A stretch of DNA of 64,000 nt, from the sequence record OR067834.1; one strand, 5' to 3'. Below, in pieces: positions 3,441 through 14,559 of this stretch (position 1 is the stretch's first letter; each line of letters begins with the position of its first letter). Made by a program: the position numbers and the translations under genes. The notes below the pieces were generated by a model. The model had not been told where the DNA came from. It ran no database searches and was given only the letters and a program-made list of their open reading frames with translations. This stretch comes from Escherichia phage KKP 3715.

Positions 3441-5016
3441 GTTAATTAAACAGGAACTGGATGAATGGCTGGACCAGGTGGATTACTCTAATTCATCAAA
3501 CTATGTTCCTAGTCAGTTTGCTCTTACCTTTGCCAACTTTATTAAGTTGGTTAATGGCAAAGAAGGTGAATCCAACAAAACACCCCCGGTTCACCTGAAG
3601 ATGTTGGATAAGATGATTACCCCGAACCAGTATGTAGTTAACCTGTGTTTCCGTGGTGCAGGTAAGACTGCTGTGTTCATGGAATACTTTACTTTGTTCC
3701 TGGCAGTGTTTGGTCACTTACCTAGTTTAGGTAAGGTAGAAGGAATGATCTACGTATCTGACTCAATGGATAACGGTGCTAAGTCTGCACGTAAGAACAT
3801 TGAGTTCCGATACAAGAATAGTGAGTTCCTTCGGCAGTGGATACCTGAAGCTACTTTTACAGATAACCTGTTAGAGTTTCGCAATGCAGAAGGGCATCGA
3901 CTAGGTGTTAAGTTGTTTGGTGCTAAGACTGGTCTTCGTGGTACGAAGATATATGGTAAGCGTCCAACACTTTGTGTACTGGATGACTTGATTAGTGATG
4001 GTGATGCTAACTCTAAGACCAGCATGGAAGCTATTAAGGATACTGTCTATAAAGGTGTGAACCATGCCCTTGACCCAACACGTCGTAAAGTAATCTTCAA
4101 CGGTACTCCTTTTAATAAGGAAGACATCATCATTGAAGCAGTAGAGTCCGGTGCATGGGATGTCAACGTATGGCCCGTGTGTGAGAAGTTCCCATGTAGT
4201 AGGGAAGAGTTTCAGGGTGCATGGGATGACCGTTTCTCATATGACTACATCAAAGCCCAATACGACATGGCAGTTAAGACTGGTAAGCTGGCTGGTTTCT
4301 ACCAGGAACTTATGCTTCGTATTAGTTCTGAAGATGAACGTCTTGTTCAGGATAGTGAGATTAAATGGTATAGCAGGCAGCAACTGTTAAGGATGAAGTC
4401 CTGCTACAACTATTACATTACAACCGACTTTGCTACCTCGGAGAAACAGACCAGTGATTACAGTGTCATATCAGTTTGGGCTTATAGTTCTAATGGAGAT
4501 TGGTTCTGGGTTGACGGTGTGGCTAATCGCCAGCTTATGGATAAAAACTTTGACGACTTGTTCCGTCTGGTTCAGGAATACCAACCACAAAACGTTGGTG
4601 TCGAAATTACAGGACAGCAAGGTGGATTCATTTCACTCCTTCAGAAAGAAATGATTAACCGAAATGTCTTCTTTAACTTTGCATCCTCTGAGGGTGGTAA
4701 GCCTGGCATCCGTCCTGTAACCTCTAAGCTGTCACGCTTTAACCTGGTAGTTCCGTGGTTCAAAGCTGGTAAGATGTACTTCCCGGAAGAGTTGAGAGAT
4801 ACAACTATTATGGGTCTGTTCATGGGCCAGATTAAACTAGCTACCATTAATGGGATTAAAGGTAAGGATGACTGTATTGATACTATCTCCATGCTGGGTT
4901 ATCTCAATCCTTGGAAACCACAAGCAGGGATGACTTTGGTGGATAACAAGGGTGACCCGATGTGGGATGAGGAAGAAGAAGATAGTGTTAACCCACTACG
5001 TTCATACATTGTGTGA
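3412..5016 (+). CDS. terL: terminase large subunit
   Basis: 534 aa; Walker A-like CFRGAGKTAV and Walker B-like LCVLDDLISD in the N-terminal ATPase region; size and position match N4-like terminase. Confidence 0.9.
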   Translation: MQMRTLQMSELIKQELDEWLDQVDYSNSSNYVPSQFALTFANFIKLVNGKEGESNKTPPVHLKMLDKMITPNQYVVNLCFRGAGKTAVFMEYFTLFLAVFGHLPSLGKVEGMIYVSDSMDNGAKSARKNIEFRYKNSEFLRQWIPEATFTDNLLEFRNAEGHRLGVKLFGAKTGLRGTKIYGKRPTLCVLDDLISDGDANSKTSMEAIKDTVYKGVNHALDPTRRKVIFNGTPFNKEDIIIEAVESGAWDVNVWPVCEKFPCSREEFQGAWDDRFSYDYIKAQYDMAVKTGKLAGFYQELMLRISSEDERLVQDSEIKWYSRQQLLRMKSCYNYYITTDFATSEKQTSDYSVISVWAYSSNGDWFWVDGVANRQLMDKNFDDLFRLVQEYQPQNVGVEITGQQGGFISLLQKEMINRNVFFNFASSEGGKPGIRPVTSKLSRFNLVVPWFKAGKMYFPEELRDTTIMGLFMGQIKLATINGIKGKDDCIDTISMLGYLNPWKPQAGMTLVDNKGDPMWDEEEEDSVNPLRSYIV

Positions 5017-8507: not shown

Positions 8508-10496
8508 ATGAAAGACATGTTTGCTCAAGGTGGTTCTGGTTCTGCTGGAATCAAGACCAATAAACAAGCAATTGCTCGTGCTTGTAACGTTAAAGTAAGT
8601 GAAGTCATTTATAGCAATGACACCATCACTACTCTTGATGGTAAAAAGGTTATCTATGATAAACCTAATCAGTATATCTGGGGCTTACCTTCTGGTATCC
8701 CATCTGGGGCTACCGTTGTAACTGTGACTGGGGCTACTCTGGTTTATAACCCTGGCAATATCTCAGTTACATTGGAATTAGTTCCTAATTCTTCTGTTAA
8801 CCAATTAAAACAAGATTTACTATCTTCAAACGGTTTTTCTTTAGTTGGTGGAATTAGGGGTATTGTTAAAACCTCTGAAGTAGCTAACTTAGAAGATGCT
8901 ATTACGTTAGCATTAGAAAATGATGCTGATGTTCTAGTAGATAATATTCAGAACATTACAGTACCAATCCGTAAATCCTTGAATGGAAAAGATATTAAAA
9001 TAATTTCTACACCTAGTGGTTGGATTAACTTTACCCCAACGGATGCTAACACTTACTATCAGGTTCTGACTTTTGACGGAACTGGGGTGGAAAGCGTAAC
9101 CACTAAAGTGAAGATAGATGGTGGTAAAGTTCGCGGCGTAGGTCGGGCTGTTGTAGGGATTACGGTAAATAACGTTTACGCACATTATGAAAGCTCAGAG
9201 ATGAGGAACATCAGCGCATGTGTAAACACAGTTACCGCCCAGATTCACCTGTGTTATGGGGCTAAATATTATAACGTATTTCAACAACTTGCTTCTCAAG
9301 ACTGGAGTGCTGGAGTGTATGGCTATGGTACTGTACCAATTGATTGTGAAACTGTATTAGTAGAAGCCAATACATTTGGTTTGTCCGGTCAACCATTAGA
9401 CCGTCATGCAGTTTATTGTTCTAGTCAAGCTGATGGAACAGGTGTAGTTCGTAATGCATTTGTCTGTAATAACACAGCAGTAATGCGTGACTACACCACG
9501 GAAACAGCAGAGACAACAAGTGAACGCTGCTTTAAATTCATTGGTACAAACCGGGTACATCTTCACCATAATACATTACGTGGGGGATATGGGTTCTGTC
9601 TGATAACACTTCATAAATTCCAAACCATGGAAAACATCCGCATCGATAACAATAGAGCAAGAACTTACGCAAGCGGAATTATTATCGCAGGACAGAACGA
9701 AGCCTCGGCAGAACCTGATGCAACATGGTACGTTGATGAATTACAGATGGCTAATAACCATTTCCGTATGAGAGCTACGGTAGCTGGAACAAGTAATGGG
9801 GCTGAGTGGCGCAACACGTATCGTGTTAGTGACGTTGGCAGTTCGTATGTAAACGAGGCATTTGCAACGGTGAATGCGTTAACTGTTTACTACCCAAAAA
9901 CAGACCGCATACGAACTGAGAGTTTCCGTTCCGAATCTTGCTACTATCAAGGGTTCCAAAATATCACCCGAGAAATGGCCCCCACTTACACCTATATAGA
10001 TATTACATGCCGTAATGCTGTTAACACTCAGAATCCCCTGAATGCATCCGGCGCTACTGTCCAGAATGTAAAAGTACGGAGTCTTGATAACACGGCGATG
10101 TGGAAGGATTACACGGCTACCGCAATTGTAGGGTTCTCATACTACGACCCTAGCTTTCTTAAATTCATAAGATGTGCAGGAGCTGGATTGTGGGAAGATG
10201 AAGATGGGTATCCAGTAGTTGGATTATCTACTGGCAGGCCCACTAGACTTCGTGAAGGTCTTAAATTCTACCAAACAGATTTAGCCACAATGATTACTTG
10301 GACCGGTTCTAACTGGGTTCTCCAGTCAGCAGGATATACTGGGATAATTAAATCAGGAACAACTCCACAAATAAACTCTGTGAACAAGGCATTACTTGGT
10401 TATGGACATGTTATATATAACACCGACACCAAAAAACCGGCTTTCTTTGATCAATTAGCTCAGTCATGGAAGTACGCAGACGGTAGCGCAATGTAA
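8508..10496 (+). CDS. second tailspike / tail fibre protein
   Basis: 662 aa; N-terminal residues ~20-96 are clearly homologous to residues ~313-386 of tailspike 1; remainder assigned as beta-helix-like from composition only. Confidence 0.75.
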   Translation: MKDMFAQGGSGSAGIKTNKQAIARACNVKVSEVIYSNDTITTLDGKKVIYDKPNQYIWGLPSGIPSGATVVTVTGATLVYNPGNISVTLELVPNSSVNQLKQDLLSSNGFSLVGGIRGIVKTSEVANLEDAITLALENDADVLVDNIQNITVPIRKSLNGKDIKIISTPSGWINFTPTDANTYYQVLTFDGTGVESVTTKVKIDGGKVRGVGRAVVGITVNNVYAHYESSEMRNISACVNTVTAQIHLCYGAKYYNVFQQLASQDWSAGVYGYGTVPIDCETVLVEANTFGLSGQPLDRHAVYCSSQADGTGVVRNAFVCNNTAVMRDYTTETAETTSERCFKFIGTNRVHLHHNTLRGGYGFCLITLHKFQTMENIRIDNNRARTYASGIIIAGQNEASAEPDATWYVDELQMANNHFRMRATVAGTSNGAEWRNTYRVSDVGSSYVNEAFATVNALTVYYPKTDRIRTESFRSESCYYQGFQNITREMAPTYTYIDITCRNAVNTQNPLNASGATVQNVKVRSLDNTAMWKDYTATAIVGFSYYDPSFLKFIRCAGAGLWEDEDGYPVVGLSTGRPTRLREGLKFYQTDLATMITWTGSNWVLQSAGYTGIIKSGTTPQINSVNKALLGYGHVIYNTDTKKPAFFDQLAQSWKYADGSAM

Positions 10497-10502
10497 AACT
10501 AA

Positions 10503-10524
10503 CCCCGCTCAGGCGGGGTTTTTT
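10503..10524 (+). terminator. intrinsic terminator (CCCCGC-TCAG-GCGGGG then TTTTTT)
   Basis: GC-rich stem and T6 tract directly after the tailspike 2 stop. Confidence 0.75.
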
Positions 10525-10527
10525 GTT

Positions 10528-10929
10528 GTGCCACAAACAAATCATTGGGTAGACTGTTTCAGTCAATTACGACTTAACCAACCTGAGAAAGTCCCTATGG
10601 GAAATGAACCAGATAACGTAACTCTAGCCAGACTCGAAGAGAGACTGAGAAACATTTTCGAAAACCAAACCCGTGAATCGAGGGAAAGGGAGAAAATGGA
10701 AGAGTCTATTAAAAAGCTAAGTGAGTCTATGGGCGACCTTAGTACCCGACTTAAACGGGTAGAAGAGAGCATCACTAAGTCTGAACCTACCATCGAAGAG
10801 TTCATCACTATTAAACATAAGGTTGCTGGTGCTGGAATTTTTGGTAAGTGGGTGTGGGCTGGAGCAGGTGCAATCATTGGTGTATTGGCTGCTGCAAGAC
10901 GGGAGATATTCGCATGGTTTGCAGGCTAA
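10528..10929 (+). CDS. membrane-anchored coiled-coil protein (C-terminal TM); possible lysis regulator
   Basis: 133 aa; charged helical N-terminus, C-terminal hydrophobic GAGIFGKWVWAGAGAIIGVLAA; likely starts at an internal Met (MGNEPDN). Confidence 0.5.
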   Translation: MPQTNHWVDCFSQLRLNQPEKVPMGNEPDNVTLARLEERLRNIFENQTRESREREKMEESIKKLSESMGDLSTRLKRVEESITKSEPTIEEFITIKHKVAGAGIFGKWVWAGAGAIIGVLAAARREIFAWFAG

Positions 10930-11174
10930 AAAGAAAGATAGGACTAGTACCTAACTGGAAGAAGTCCTGGAAGTGGGCATCTGTTCAGATTAGCACGTTT
11001 GGATTAATTCTGTTTTCCGTCGTAGATATTATCCAACCAATGCTAACAGGGCTACCTCGCCACATCCTGGAAGATATTCCACATGGTTCCAGCATTACAA
11101 TCGCACTATTTGCCTTAAACATTGTAGGCAGACTAATACGATTCCATCCAAAGGAAGATTCTCATGAAAGCTAA
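10914..11174 (+). CDS. holin candidate (two predicted TM helices)
   Basis: ATG 10914 with GGGAGA RBS; 86 aa with two hydrophobic segments (ISTFGLILFSVVDII and SSITIALFALNIVG); sits directly upstream of and overlapping the endolysin. Track lists it as 10848..11174. Confidence 0.5.
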   Translation: MVCRLKRKIGLVPNWKKSWKWASVQISTFGLILFSVVDIIQPMLTGLPRHILEDIPHGSSITIALFALNIVGRLIRFHPKEDSHES

Positions 11175-11799
11175 ACAGAAACTTGCTGCAAAAGGTGGTG
11201 CAGTGGGAGGAGTTGTCGCTGCTATTCTGGGGGCAGTGTTCTATATGGAAGGGGGGTACGTAAACAATCCTCGTGACCCAGGTGGGGAAACTAATCATGG
11301 TATTACTCAATCAGTAGCTAAGTCTCACAAAGAAGTTCTGGCTACTGAGTATGGTTGGGATGGTTCCATGAAGGGTTTATCTAAAGAGATGGCTGCTGAG
11401 ATATACATAGATGACTACGTACTTAAGCCTAACTTCGTAGCTTTCGCTGATATATCTCCTGCTGTAACACACAAACTGGTTGATGCTGGTGTTAACACAG
11501 GTGTAACCAGACCAGCTAAGTGGTTGCAGCAATCTCTTAATGAAATGTCCCGTGATGGCAAAGACTACCCTAAAATACAAGTTGATGGTAAAGTCGGTGC
11601 AGGTACTGTTAATGCATATAAAGCATTACAGAAAAAACGAGGCAAAGTTGCAGCATGTCAGGTAATGATTAAGTTACTTGATGCTAAACAACTGAACCAC
11701 TACACCTCATTGAACATGCCAGACTTTACGTATGGTTGGGTAGCTAACCGAATTGGTAATGTACCACTGGAGGCATGTAATGAAGATGCTAATCTCTAA
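11164..11799 (+). CDS. endolysin, GH108-type N-acetylmuramidase with C-terminal peptidoglycan-binding region; N-terminal signal-anchor-release-like segment
   Basis: 211 aa; GH108 signature EGGYVNNPRDPGGETNHGITQ; N-terminal Gly/Ala-rich weakly hydrophobic stretch GGAVGGVVAAILGAVFYM. Confidence 0.85.
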   Translation: MKAKQKLAAKGGAVGGVVAAILGAVFYMEGGYVNNPRDPGGETNHGITQSVAKSHKEVLATEYGWDGSMKGLSKEMAAEIYIDDYVLKPNFVAFADISPAVTHKLVDAGVNTGVTRPAKWLQQSLNEMSRDGKDYPKIQVDGKVGAGTVNAYKALQKKRGKVAACQVMIKLLDAKQLNHYTSLNMPDFTYGWVANRIGNVPLEACNEDANL

Positions 11800-12280
11800 A
11801 GGTTGGCCTTATCTTCTGGTGGTGGTCCTCGGGGCCACCATTTACTTTTGGGGCAATTCCAATGGGCAGTCTACTGTTCAAAAGAGGTGGGATGCCCAAA
11901 AGGTTGAAGACCTGAAGGCAACACAAAAACTACAGGACAAATACAATGCTCTCCAAAGAAACCATAGTTATGAAGTCGGGTTACTTACTTCCCGGTTGCA
12001 GACGGCTGAGAGTAATTACGCAAGCGAGCTTGCTCGCGTTAGCAGTGATTACGACAGCCGGATGCAACAGTCTGAAAGACGAGCATCGGTATATAAACGT
12101 CAAGCCGAAACCGGAACCCTTGAGTGCAGAAGTCTTGCAAGCCATGCAGCCAGACTCGACAACAGTCTTGAAGAAGGCAGACGTTTGGTTGAAGAACTCC
12201 GGGCAACTGTTAGACTCCGTGACAACCAACTAATTGAGTTGGGTAAGCAAATTCAGGCTGACCGTAAACTTTTTGAATAG
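11753..12280 (+). CDS. i-spanin (Rz-like)
   Basis: N-terminal TM ([16 protein letters not shown]) then a coiled-coil-like periplasmic domain; likely true start ATG 11780; directly downstream of the endolysin. Confidence 0.7.
11970..12233 (+). CDS. o-spanin (Rz1-like lipoprotein) embedded in the +1 frame of the i-spanin gene
   Basis: Track ORF 11946..12233; from Met 11970 the product has a signal peptide with lipobox-like ITTAG|C and a short Pro-containing mature domain. Confidence 0.65.
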   Translation: MKSGYLLPGCRRLRVITQASLLALAVITTAGCNSLKDEHRYINVKPKPEPLSAEVLQAMQPDSTTVLKKADVWLKNSGQLLDSVTTN

Positions 12281-12288
12281 GATTAACT

Positions 12289-14559
12289 ATGGAACACCAA
12301 GACACTTTTAAGCCTTTACCAGACCCGGCTCAATCAGAGAAGTTAACGGACTGGAAGAAGGAACCAAGTATCCAATTACTGAAGGGTGATTTGGAATCAG
12401 CTAAACCGGCTCACGATGCGATTATGGCACAGATTCGTGAGTGGAATGACCTGATGGAAGTCAAGGGTAAAGCTAAACCCCCAAAGGTTAAGGGACGCTC
12501 ACAAGTCCAACCCAGACTGGTTCGCCGTCAGGCAGAGTGGCGATATGCTCCATTGTCTGAGCCGTTCCTCTCATCTAATAAACTCTTTAAAGTAACTCCG
12601 GTTACCTTTGAAGATGAGTTAGCTGCACGTCAGAATGAATTAGTTCTTAACTACCAATTCCGTACCCAGCTTAATAAAGTAAAACTGGTAGATGATTACG
12701 TACACAGTGTCGTAGATGACGGTACTGGTATTGCTCGTATTGGTTGGGAACGTAAGACTGTTAAGATTAAAACAGAAACTCCTGTATTTCAGTTGTATCC
12801 AATTGAGAACCAGGAACAGGCCGATGTTCTCCAGCAGGCTTTACAGCTTCAGGCAGAGAATCCTCGTGAGTATGATGAAACAATGCCGGAAGATATTAAG
12901 GAAGCTGTTAACTACTTCAATGAAACTGGGGAAGCTACCTATGCAATCCAGACTGGGGTTACTGAAGTAGAAGTAGAGAAGGCACTGGTTAACAGACCTA
13001 CTGTTGAAATGCTTAACCCTAATAACGTAGTTATTGACCCAAGCTGTAATGGTGATTTGGATAAGGCTCTTTATGCAGTTATCTCGTTCGAGACATGCAA
13101 AGCAGACCTCATGAAGAACAAAGACCGTTACCACAATTTAGATAAGATTGACTGGGAAAGCTCCAGCCCTATGACTGACCCAGACCATGAGAGTAAAACC
13201 CCTAGTGACTTCCAGTTTAAGGATGCACTTCGTAAGAAAGTTGTTGCTTATGAATACTGGGGATTTTACGACATTAATGATGACGGTTCTCTGGAACCCA
13301 TTGTTGCTACCTGGATTGGTTCTACCCTTATTCGTATGGAGAAGAACCCATTCCCGGATGGTAAATTACCTTTAGTAGTTGTTCCTTACATGCCACGTAA
13401 ACGAGAACTATTCGGTGAAGCTGATGCTGAACTGTTAGGAGATAACCAAGCAATTCTTGGTGCAACTATGCGTGGGATGATTGACCTGTTAGGTCGAAGT
13501 GCAAACGGTCAACGTGGCTATCCTAAAGGGATGTTGGATACACTGAACCGTCGTCGGTATGACGATGGGCAAGACTATGAATATAACCCAATGCAGGGCA
13601 ATCCTAGTCAGGCCATTATGGAACATAAGTTCCCTGAGTTACCACAGTCGGCAATAATAATGACCCAGATGCAAAACCAGGAAGCAGAATCCCTAACTGG
13701 TGTTAAAGCATTCTCTGGTGGTGTAACTGGTTCAGCTTATGGAGATGTGGCTGCTGGTATTCGTGGTGCACTTGATGCAGCATCCAAACGTGAGATGGCA
13801 ATCCTTCGTCGATTAGCTAAGGGTATGGCAGACATTGGTACTAAGATTTGTGCAATGAATGCCGTGTTCTTATCAGAGAAGGAAGTAGTACGTATTACTA
13901 ACGAGCAGTATGTAGAGATTAACCGTGAAGACCTTAAAGGTAACTTCGATATTGAGGTTGATATTAATACTGCCGAAATTGATAACCAGAAGTCTCAGGA
14001 TTTGAGTTTCATGGTTCAAACATTGGGTAATACGGTTGACCAGACTATTACGTTATCTCTTGTAGCTAAGATTGCAGAACTTAAACGTATGCCTGACCTG
14101 GCTCATGAGTTACGTACTTGGCAACCACAGCCAGACCCTATGGAAGAGCAGCTTAAGCAATTGGCGATTCAGAAAGCACAGCTTGAGAATGAAGAGTTAC
14201 AAAGTAAGATTGCACTCAATATGGCTAAGGCTAAAGAGGCTGCTTCTAGTGGTGACCTTAAAGACCTGGATTATCTGGAACAGGAATCTGGTACTAAACA
14301 TGCCCGTGATATGGAAAAACAAAAAGCACAATCTCAAGGAAACCAGAACCTTCAGATAACTAAGGCATTGACAACACCTATTAAAGAAGGGGAAACTACC
14401 CCCAACATATCTGCAGCTGTTGGATATAATACTTTGACTAACGGGAACTCTATACCAGAACGTGATTTAGCTGCTCAACAAGACCCGGCTTATTCACTCA
14501 GTTCCCAATACTATGACCCTAGCCAAGACCCAGCATCGGCTCTTGGCATGAACCTGTAA
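12289..14559 (+). CDS. portal protein
   Basis: 756 aa; size and position (between lysis genes and scaffold/capsid) match the N4-like portal. Confidence 0.85.

Follow-up and report, generated by a model that had tools for sequence, protein, structure and literature searches.

The window, the whole 64,000-nucleotide stretch of Escherichia phage KKP 3715 (record OR067834.1), carries a lysis cassette in which two small membrane proteins are encoded ahead of a predicted signal-anchor-release (SAR) endolysin, and the locus raises the question of which of the two triggers lysis. An earlier note on this DNA, made from the letters alone, had chosen the two-TM ORF next to the endolysin gene as the pinholin partner and had regarded the preceding coiled-coil protein with a C-terminal TM as a possible regulator. 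Gene structure, domain membership, orthology, conservation and dual-coding constraint were established directly in this analysis. It is highly probable that positions 10597–12280 (+) form the late lysis cassette of a G7C-like (Gamaleyavirus, Schitoviridae) podophage, gene-for-gene orthologous to N4 gp63-gp62-gp61-gp60/gp60a, in which the gp63-like protein triggers as the pinholin and the gp62-like protein is accessory, together with a SAR GH108 endolysin and a spanin pair.

Results

The cassette is orthologous to the N4 lysis genes

Five overlapping genes, all on the plus strand and orthologous to N4 gp63, gp62, gp61, gp60 and gp60a, were located at 10597–12280 and are flanked by a tailspike gene and a portal gene (Table 1). 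All ORFs described in the earlier note exist on this strand, and its identification of a lysis cassette was upheld. The gene overlaps of 16, 11 and 20 nt fit the expectation for a translationally coupled cassette. A terminator-like hairpin closes the upstream tailspike gene (8508–10496) and delimits the cassette on its 5′ side; no sigma-70-type promoter was found between this hairpin and the first gene.

The nucleotide sequence of the cassette is about 96–97% identical to those of phages E20, F22, ST4, Bas96, PhAPEC5/7 and G7C. At least 80% of the region was covered in 57 phage records, the best of which are 96–97% identical, and the best-matching records are annotated with holin, endolysin, Rz, o-spanin and portal. 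The cassette is an ordinary, already annotated and already known G7C/N4-like lysis cluster.

Table 1. Features of the lysis cassette and its upstream boundary (window coordinates).
Feature	Position	Strand	Basis and remarks
Intrinsic-terminator-like hairpin and T-run	10501..10527	+	8-bp stem, 6 GC pairs, TTTTGTTGTG tail
gp63-like protein, 110 aa	10597-10929	+	Orthologue of N4 gp63 pinholin; start ATG 10597
gp62-like two-TMD protein, 86 aa	10914-11174	+	Orthologue of N4 gp62 (lysis regulator, late holin-like activity)
SAR-type GH108 N-acetylmuramidase endolysin, 211 aa	11164-11799	+	Pfam domains, N4 gp61 orthology (muramidase activity predicted)
i-spanin (Rz-like, gp60 orthologue), 166 aa	11780-12280	+	phrog_6197, N4 gp60 orthology
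o-spanin (Rz1-like, gp60a orthologue), 87 aa precursor	11970-12233	+	Embedded frame, lipobox; alternative start ATG 11946

The gp63-like protein retains the juxtamembrane motif and TMD of N4 gp63

The gp63-like protein consists of an N-terminal coiled-coil region (aa 1–61), a conserved ‘Receiver’ motif, PTIEEFITIKHKV (aa 64–76, nt 10786–10824), and a C-terminal Gly/Ala-rich TMD (~aa 77–99, nt 10825–10893). The TMD is followed by Arg-Arg and has one Lys within it, which makes the topology ambiguous. Alignment with N4 gp63 by blastp gave 59.6% identity over 109 of 110 aa (E = 2e-51), and the protein matched phrog_5211 (E = 3e-49). Identity rises to ~88% across residues 62–110, comprising the Receiver motif and the TMD, where PTIEEFITIKHKV-GAG--GKWVW equals the N4 sequence except for one V/A position. 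Residues P64, K73, K75, G78, A79, G80, G83 and W87 are invariant in the alignment, T65 is nearly so, and T71 is the same as in N4 and most relatives. T65 and T71 are two residues mutated in N4 rapid lysers, and both are kept here.

Pfam scans of 12 family members and a PDB profile search with the gp63-like protein returned only generic coiled-coil matches below the cut-offs, an NCBIfam search gave nothing meaningful, and no Pfam holin family was recovered for either of the two small proteins. One PHROG family with a weak match (E = 3e-4) bears the label ‘hemolysin’. Public records annotate gp63-like proteins as ‘hypothetical’ or even as ‘tail length tape-measure protein’.

The start of this gene had previously been placed at GTG 10528. 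Although in frame, that codon falls on the T-tract of the terminator, and in Bas96 and G7C the reading frame is interrupted by a stop 5 codons ahead of the ATG, indicating that the extension is not conserved; ATG 10597 was adopted instead.

The gp62-like protein has a predicted class II holin layout

Hydropathy analysis gave two peaks at aa 22–44 and 57–77 of the gp62-like protein, corresponding to TMDs at ~aa 21–43 and 58–76, between a basic N-terminus and a basic C-terminus, and on this basis the protein fits the two-TMD layout with both termini cytoplasmic of a class II holin or S21-type pinholin. A GGGAG Shine-Dalgarno sequence is present 8 nt ahead of its ATG. The protein is 56% identical to N4 gp62 and matched Pfam DUF7940, a family of unknown function (52.8 bits, E = 6e-14), and phrog_1356 (E = 3e-28), where ‘holin’ is an annotation label and not a test; its score against NCBIfam holin_3 was 16 bits, the cut-off being 80. 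Members of the family are labelled ‘holin’ in phrog_1356 and RefSeq, and ‘class II holin’ in Paxi.

A longer in-frame form of gp62 starting at GTG 10848 is possible and has no good Shine-Dalgarno sequence. It was considered as a conserved feature and rejected. Ahead of the usual start, the frame is open in Enquatrovirinae and Achromobacter phage Axy13 and closed in Paxi and Kuerle. The apparent conservation of the long form is forced by the overlapping codons of the gp63 TMD and is not independent evidence.

The endolysin combines GH108 and PG_binding_3 domains behind a SAR-type segment

Pfam domains called at the curated gathering cut-offs identified Glyco_hydro_108 (PF05838; aa 24–113, E = 6e-20, 71.9 bits, cut-off 21.2) and PG_binding_3 (PF09374; aa 117–196, E = 6.5e-8, 33.1 bits, cut-off 24.6), which confirmed the GH108 endolysin proposed previously. 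Among PDB entries, 6V3Z (E = 4e-27) and 6V40, both of the muramidase family, are the nearest, and 2IKB is a further relative. The catalytic motif, MEGGYVNNPRDPGGETNHGIT (aa 28–48), is of the EGGY...DPGG.TN.GIT type and is found, with its Glu intact, in all 12 relatives. Upstream, the SAR segment GGAVGGVVAAILGAVFY (~aa 7–28, nt 11182–11247) is 53% Gly+Ala and flanked by Lys. In the N-terminus, KAKQKLAAK-GGAVGGVVAAILGAVFYM-E, the core is weakly hydrophobic, with a basic flank and no acidic residue inside, and Glu29 of EGGY follows the segment immediately. Identity to N4 gp61 is 70% over the body of the protein, the N-terminal architecture is near-identical, and this SAR-type architecture is kept in 12 of 12 relatives. 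Position-independent biological hydrophobicity sums were similar for all hydrophobic segments of the cassette and did not separate the SAR segment from ordinary TMDs.

N4 experiments point to the gp63-like protein as the pinholin

The functional evidence comes from one preprint on N4 (bioRxiv 10.1101/2025.11.12.688109), whose proteins are 56–70% identical to those of the window. In that work, N4 gp63 behaved as a pinholin in all respects: it complemented an S21 but not an S105 defect, was lethal upon CCCP triggering, was the site of rapid-lysis mutations and was conditionally essential, and its deletion from a plasmid-borne N4 cassette delayed lysis by only ~20 min (bioRxiv 10.1101/2025.11.12.688109). 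N4 gp62 did not complement holin defects in the normal time frame, or within ~2 h, could be deleted from the phage without a block of lysis and yielded no mutant among more than 60 rapid lysers (bioRxiv 10.1101/2025.11.12.688109). When expressed alone, it nevertheless caused CCCP-triggerable lethality and late release of both SAR and soluble endolysins, and it gave faster lysis together with gp63 (bioRxiv 10.1101/2025.11.12.688109); the division of labour between gp63 and gp62 is therefore not absolute. These last activities, together with the S21 68-like arrangement of two TMDs with both ends inside and the ‘holin’ or ‘class II holin’ labels given to the family by PHROG, RefSeq and CPT, are what favour the opposite assignment, in which the gp62-like protein would act as the pinholin and free the SAR endolysin, with the gp63-like protein as only a regulator or antiholin. 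We regard that assignment as unlikely, in view of the N4 phenotypes and also of gene content: a gp63-like protein was found in 12 of 12 relatives and a gp62-like protein was missing from two, and phages Meara and RG-2014, which lack it, keep the gp63-like gene directly beside the endolysin gene. The proposal of the earlier note that the two-TM ORF is the pinholin partner was thus not borne out, nor was that of a possible regulatory role for the coiled-coil protein. Its choice of holin was an understandable inference that matches the conventional database label and is probably reversed; by analogy with N4, the gp63-like protein is most likely the true pinholin and trigger.

A further reading concerns the pair as a whole. 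G7C was reported to be without lysis inhibition, so regulation may differ from that in N4, and yet the near-invariant cytoplasmic Receiver motif and the two-TMD partner are kept here; the pair might then act as a general timing device of holin and modulator that does not depend on superinfection-induced lysis inhibition, possibly using the long gp62 isoform, whose first 22 codons would be read out of frame from the region coding for the pinholin TMD. We consider this improbable, more so than a pinholin role of the gp62-like protein; if true, the long isoform would represent a new kind of dual-start/overlap control of lysis timing. Least probable of all is that the endolysin N-terminus is a cleavable Sec signal peptide or a stable anchor, in which case lysis timing would not depend on a pinholin. 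A basic n-region with a hydrophobic core and the small residues (LGA) preceding VFYMEGGY are compatible with a signal peptide, and the crude hydrophobicity scale is uninformative on this point. However, more than half of the segment is Gly or Ala, EGGY begins 1–3 residues past it, so that cleavage would leave almost no N-terminus, and the architecture is conserved across the 12 relatives. N4 gp61 moreover associates with the membrane, cooperates with a pinholin and shows leakiness when expressed on its own, and acidic substitutions in its SAR domain, for example G12E, cause early, rapid lysis (bioRxiv 10.1101/2025.11.12.688109); its muramidase activity has been reported (as cited in bioRxiv 10.1101/2025.11.12.688109). 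Since gp61 is an experimentally shown SAR endolysin and the window protein shares its architecture, the SAR-type N-terminus proposed earlier is supported.

The o-spanin gene is embedded in the i-spanin gene under dual-coding constraint

The i-spanin has an N-terminal TMD (~aa 8–24) and a periplasmic coiled-coil domain with one Cys. It matched phrog_6197, ‘Rz-like spanin’, over its full length (E = 7e-77) and is 58.6% identical to N4 gp60. The start at TTG 11753 given previously is unsupported and was rejected in favour of ATG 11780, which Bas96 also uses in its annotation and which has GGAGG as Shine-Dalgarno sequence ahead of it.

The whole of the o-spanin gene is contained within the i-spanin gene and is read in the +1 frame, its stop falling 47 nt short of the i-spanin stop. 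Its lipobox, ...ITTAGC, assessed by the PROSITE-type rule, places the lipidated residue at Cys32 (nt 12063–12065), with N, not Asp, at +2. The predicted mature lipoprotein has 56 aa, 4 Pro and a single Cys, the lipidated one. These coordinates and the lipobox bear out the claim of a fully embedded Rz1. The protein is 62% identical to N4 gp60a, was found in 158 phage records by tblastn, and carries the annotation o-spanin in Bas96 and gp60′ in G7C.

Loss of this frame in relatives, which the earlier note had named as evidence against an embedded gene, was not observed: the +1 frame is open with the lipobox Cys in 12 of 12 fetched relatives from 8 host genera. Third-codon-position identity in the i-spanin frame is 0.73 within the overlap, compared with 0.33 and 0.38 in the flanks, and DNA matches to distant phages stop exactly at the o-spanin stop. 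By a rough estimate, the probability that 105 codons of the +1 frame contain no stop under uniform codon use is ~0.6%; together with the presence of the frame in all 12 relatives and the constrained synonymous sites of the i-spanin frame, this indicates that the open frame goes beyond chance. The embedded o-spanin frame is a conserved coding sequence under clear dual-coding constraint.

Discussion

The activities in the window cassette, and their order, are proposed here on the basis of the experiments with N4 and of what is established about SAR endolysins, pinholins and spanins. After export, the GH108 muramidase would stay tethered in the inner membrane in inactive form through its weakly hydrophobic N-terminal SAR segment, with the catalytic Glu located right at the membrane boundary. 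The tail-anchored gp63-like protein, with its cytoplasmic coiled coil, juxtamembrane motif and Gly/Ala-rich C-terminal TMD, would accumulate and trigger as a pinholin, and the membrane potential would collapse. The SAR segment would then exit the bilayer and the freed muramidase would break down the peptidoglycan, after which the i-spanin/o-spanin complex would disrupt the outer membrane. The two-TMD gp62-like protein would be a non-essential accessory that modulates lysis and has slow holin-like activity.

The significance of the locus beyond correct annotation is small, as near-identical (96–97%) cassettes are deposited and the N4 orthologues have been dissected experimentally. The practical point for annotation is that public records call the gp62-like protein the holin, whereas the N4 data indicate the gp63-like protein as the pinholin. 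For engineering lysis timing in N4-like therapeutic phages, the gp63-like protein and the endolysin SAR segment would be the targets.

Comparison with known lysis systems

The N4 cassette is alike in gene order, protein sizes (110 / 86–87 / 208–211 / 166–167 / 87 aa), overlaps and location between tail genes and the portal gene; each of the five proteins has its homologue there (56–70% identity), and the mature o-spanin has 56 aa in both. It differs in that the N-terminal half of the window gp63-like protein is divergent and mosaic, the internal alternative starts Met13/Met17 of N4 gp63 being Leu here. For the long gp62 isoform, the start codon would be GTG in the window and is ATG in N4, and the window o-spanin is without the internal Met that N4 has just ahead of the signal peptide, giving a longer n-region of the precursor. 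Lysis inhibition is a feature of N4 and is reportedly absent in G7C-type phages. The G7C-like phages themselves (G7C gp63-gp60′, Bas96_0006-0010, ST4, E20, PhAPEC5/7) share 96–97% nucleotide identity and an equal annotated gene set with the window, and the gp63-like and o-spanin proteins of ST4 are 100% identical to those described here. Inside the cassette only point differences are found; the tailspike gene upstream of it is not the same, and matches begin after window position 10494–10516.

The S21 68 pinholin and R21 SAR endolysin of phage 21, and P1 Lyz, provide the parallel of a tethered endolysin that is freed when a small-hole holin depolarises the membrane, and complementation of the phage 21 components was obtained with N4 gp63 and gp61 (bioRxiv 10.1101/2025.11.12.688109). 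There is no sequence relationship to these proteins: the window endolysin is a GH108 muramidase, not T4-lysozyme-like, and S21 68 has two TMDs, whereas the window pinholin orthologue has one C-terminal TMD and a cytoplasmic coiled coil. As in lambda Rz/Rz1, the gene for a type II membrane i-spanin harbours, in its +1 frame, the gene for the o-spanin lipoprotein, and N4 gp60/gp60a complement lambda Rz/Rz1 (bioRxiv 10.1101/2025.11.12.688109). Unlike the lambda pair, the window i-spanin belongs to another sequence family (phrog_6197), with sub-threshold matches only to other Rz PHROGs and DUF2514, and the lipidated Cys is the single Cys of the mature o-spanin.

Composition and relatives of the lysis cassette

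The region 10400-12400 matched 95 phage records by megablast. The best matches (96-97% identity) were Escherichia phages E20, F22, ST4, SP5M, Bas96, PhAPEC5, PhAPEC7 and G7C, which are N4-like podophages of the genus Gamaleyavirus (Schitoviridae, Enquatrovirinae). The cassette is already known and already annotated: its exact gene set is present in the records of these phages, in the order hypothetical, holin, endolysin, Rz-like spanin, o-spanin and portal in Bas96, and as gp63, gp62 ("putative holin"), gp61 (N-acetylmuramidase) and gp60 with the embedded gp60' spanins in G7C. Gene structure, domains, orthology and constraint were observed directly, the comparison set being 12 relatives from Escherichia, Klebsiella, Achromobacter, Stenotrophomonas, Erwinia, Pseudomonas, Burkholderia and Delftia hosts. 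The earlier note's observation of a lysis cassette was confirmed and its interpretation borne out in part; two start codons were corrected, and its holin and regulator roles are probably swapped.

Features of the lysis cassette and its flanks (gp numbers follow phage N4)
Feature	Position	Strand	Match
Tailspike-like gene, 662 aa	8508-10496	+	
Terminator hairpin plus T-run, 3' of tailspike-like gene	10501-10520	+	
gp63-like, 110 aa	10597-10929	+	
gp62-like, 86 aa	10914-11174	+	
Endolysin, 211 aa	11164-11799	+	
i-spanin, 166 aa	11780-12280	+	
Terminator-like hairpin	11818-11842	+	
o-spanin, 87 aa, nested in +1 frame of i-spanin gene	11970-12233	+	
Portal gene	12289-14559	+	SU10_portal, E = 4e-151

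The five genes are tightly packed, with overlaps of 16, 11 and 20 nt between successive genes and good Shine-Dalgarno sequences at starts 10914, 11164 and 11780. GTG 10528, previously given as the gp63-like start, lies on the terminator T-tract, and its frame is closed 5 codons before the ATG in Bas96 and G7C; since all relatives encode a gp63-like protein of about 110 aa, the start was assigned to ATG 10597. The alternative starts Met13 and Met17 of N4 gp63 are Leu in the window protein. GTG 10848 would open a longer gp62-like frame of 108 aa, the counterpart of a 109-aa form considered in N4. No convincing Shine-Dalgarno sequence precedes it, and the frame is closed in both Paxi and Kuerle. 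Because this frame overlaps the highly constrained gp63 TMD codons, its conservation carries no independent weight. The hairpin at 11818-11842, with 11 pairs (6 GC) and a weak T tail, falls directly past the endolysin stop, where the i-spanin TMD is encoded, and is probably a chance by-product of the GGTGGTGGTCC...GGCCACCA coding sequence.

Endolysin

The GH108 signature noted earlier was borne out by Pfam matches above the cut-offs (Glyco_hydro_108, 71.9 bits; PG_binding_3, 33.1 bits), and the protein also matched phrog_315 "endolysin" and relatives with solved structures (6V3Z, 6V40, 7DNP, 2IKB, 2IS5). Its N-terminus, MKAKQKLAAK-GGAVGGVVAAILGAVFYM-EGGY, consists of a Lys-rich head, a 17-residue core with 53% Gly+Ala and zero acidic residues, and the conserved EGGY...DPGGETNHGIT motif, an arrangement common to all 12 relatives. 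In an ungapped comparison anchored on EGGY, window Gly15 aligned with Gly12 of N4 gp61. A crude hydrophobicity sum did not set the N-terminal segment apart from ordinary TMDs. N4 gp61 works with a pinholin and is leaky if expressed alone, and negative charge in its SAR segment yields rapid-lysis mutants (bioRxiv 10.1101/2025.11.12.688109). Sequence character together with this orthologue thus argues for a SAR endolysin.

Spanins and the embedded frame

The i-spanin matched phrog_6197 "Rz-like spanin" over its whole length (E = 7e-77) and has an N-terminal TMD followed by a long helical periplasmic part. The o-spanin carries a lipobox Cys at residue 32 with Asn at +2, leaving a mature protein of 56 residues with four prolines. 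Conservation of the embedded frame, proposed earlier as a check, was found in 12/12 relatives: the +1 frame is open, with the lipobox Cys and the tail INVKP..PL....LQ.MQP.ST.LLKKA..W..NS.QLLDSV. Mean pairwise position-3 identity in the i-spanin codon alignment of ten non-redundant sequences was 0.33 before the overlap, 0.40 over the o-spanin signal peptide, 0.73 over the mature o-spanin and 0.38 after its stop; i-spanin position 3 is o-spanin position 2, so this is the expected signature of real dual coding. In distant phages the o-spanin is conserved better than its host frame (74% vs 53% in Axy13). Phages of Achromobacter and Stenotrophomonas match by blastn (up to 87.6% identity) at query positions 1493-1637 only (window 12089-12233), a stretch ending exactly at the o-spanin stop. 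By tblastn, the o-spanin was found in 158 phage records. These results clearly contradict the refuting case named in the earlier note, an embedded frame that is not conserved.

In Burkholderia phage HN02 (record L011, 1945-2709), the i-spanin frame lacks a stop at the usual position and continues for about 80 codons beyond other i-spanin ends, reaching the portal gene as annotated. Only the embedded ORF (ORF77) is annotated in the record, not the i-spanin. Either an error of sequencing or annotation or a genuine C-terminal extension may be responsible.

Probable assignment of the pinholin

The N-terminal region of the gp63-like protein matched generic coiled-coil models only. It precedes the near-invariant PTIEEFITIKHKV-GAG--GKWVW, after which comes a hydrophobic, Gly/Ala-rich segment at the C-terminus; the protein belongs to phrog_5211 (unknown function), and no Pfam family was found for it. 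GenBank and RefSeq records of relatives (for example phi G17, IME11, KP8, Bp4, Kuerle, HN02) often name it "tail length tape-measure protein", probably through a spurious coiled-coil match; such a role is implausible for a membrane protein of 110 aa with a pinholin as its N4 orthologue. The gp62-like protein has two hydrophobic segments and basic termini, and matched DUF7940 and phrog_1356 (labelled "holin").

The N4 lysis proteins were tested directly by the Ramsey laboratory (preprint, bioRxiv 10.1101/2025.11.12.688109). N4 gp63 complements a defect in the S21 pinholin and fails to complement one in lambda S105, its triggering by CCCP causes irreversible cell killing, six rapid-lysis mutations, including T65I and T71A, cluster in its juxtamembrane "Receiver" region, and it is deletable only with compensating gp61 SAR-domain mutations. 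N4 gp62 is deletable, left holin defects uncomplemented for about 2 h and yielded no mutant in a screen of >60 rapid lysers; its lethal activity is real, though slow, and the authors describe it as a regulator of lysis whose holin activity can be triggered. When N4 gp63 was removed from a plasmid cassette, lysis came only about 20 min later (same preprint).

The earlier note had the two-TMD protein as pinholin and the coiled-coil protein as a possible regulator. RefSeq and PHROGs also call the two-TMD protein a holin, and the CPT annotation of phage Paxi reads "class II holin, SAR endolysin, embedded spanin". However, the gp62-like gene is missing from Pseudomonas phage Meara and Delftia phage RG-2014, where the gp63-like gene directly adjoins the endolysin gene, whereas the gp63-like gene is present in 12/12 relatives; across the whole phage collection, records with a tblastn match numbered 149 for gp63-like and 123 for gp62-like. 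Over residues 62-110, window gp63-like and N4 gp63 share about 88% identity, with T65 and T71 kept. Together, the N4 experiments, the Receiver/TMD identity and the distribution make 10597-10929 the probable pinholin gene and 10914-11174 the probable gene of an accessory modulator. The functional data behind this assignment come from one preprint, on an N4 pair 56-60% identical to the window proteins.

Apparent recombination at the 5' edge

Short gp63-like relics, 90-93% identical, adjoin tailspike genes of unrelated large myophages. Window 10521-10672 corresponds to 3514-3665 of the A221 record (L014; Ackermannviridae), in a gap between two large "hypothetical protein" CDSs that are both tblastn-similar to the window tailspike; window 10708-10873 corresponds to 3992-4157 of the ZCKP1 record (L013; Phapecoctavirus), just downstream of tail spike gp111, where the annotation gives a hypothetical protein of 52 aa. 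Similar matches came from SKML-39 and PH4. The relics resemble footprints left by an exchange of tailspike modules whose breakpoints fell within gp63-like, in its variable N-terminal half.

Gamaleyaviruses share 94-97% identity with the window from gp62 through the portal gene. Window 10597-10760 was compared with the Mimir124/IME11 type (Mimir124, record L003; IME11, Bp4 and others): gp63-like of this type is only about 69% identical, and nucleotide matches begin near 10750. This places a recombination boundary inside the putative pinholin gene, where the variable coiled-coil half meets the conserved Receiver/TMD half.

The tailspike-like protein had no Pfam match; its tailspike/tail-fibre PHROG matches fall mainly in the first 90-140 residues, apart from a weaker one that spans aa 26-285. 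At the nucleotide level, the closest relatives begin to match only past the 3' end of its gene, so the receptor-binding part appears to be a module different from that of E20, G7C and Bas96.

Proposed lysis pathway and comparison with N4

By analogy with N4 and with established SAR-endolysin, pinholin and spanin biology, the SAR segment would pin the exported muramidase in an inactive state until triggering of the tail-anchored gp63-like pinholin depolarises the membrane; the segment would then exit the membrane and the enzyme degrade peptidoglycan, with gp62-like modulating or backing up this release, before the i-spanin/o-spanin complex breaches the outer membrane. G7C was reported to lack the lysis inhibition of N4. 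Identities to the N4 proteins (blastp, tblastn) are 59.6% for gp63, 56.1% for gp62, 70.5% for gp61, 58.6% for gp60 and 62.1% for gp60a, and the mature o-spanin is equal in length to that of N4 gp60a (bioRxiv 10.1101/2025.11.12.688109).
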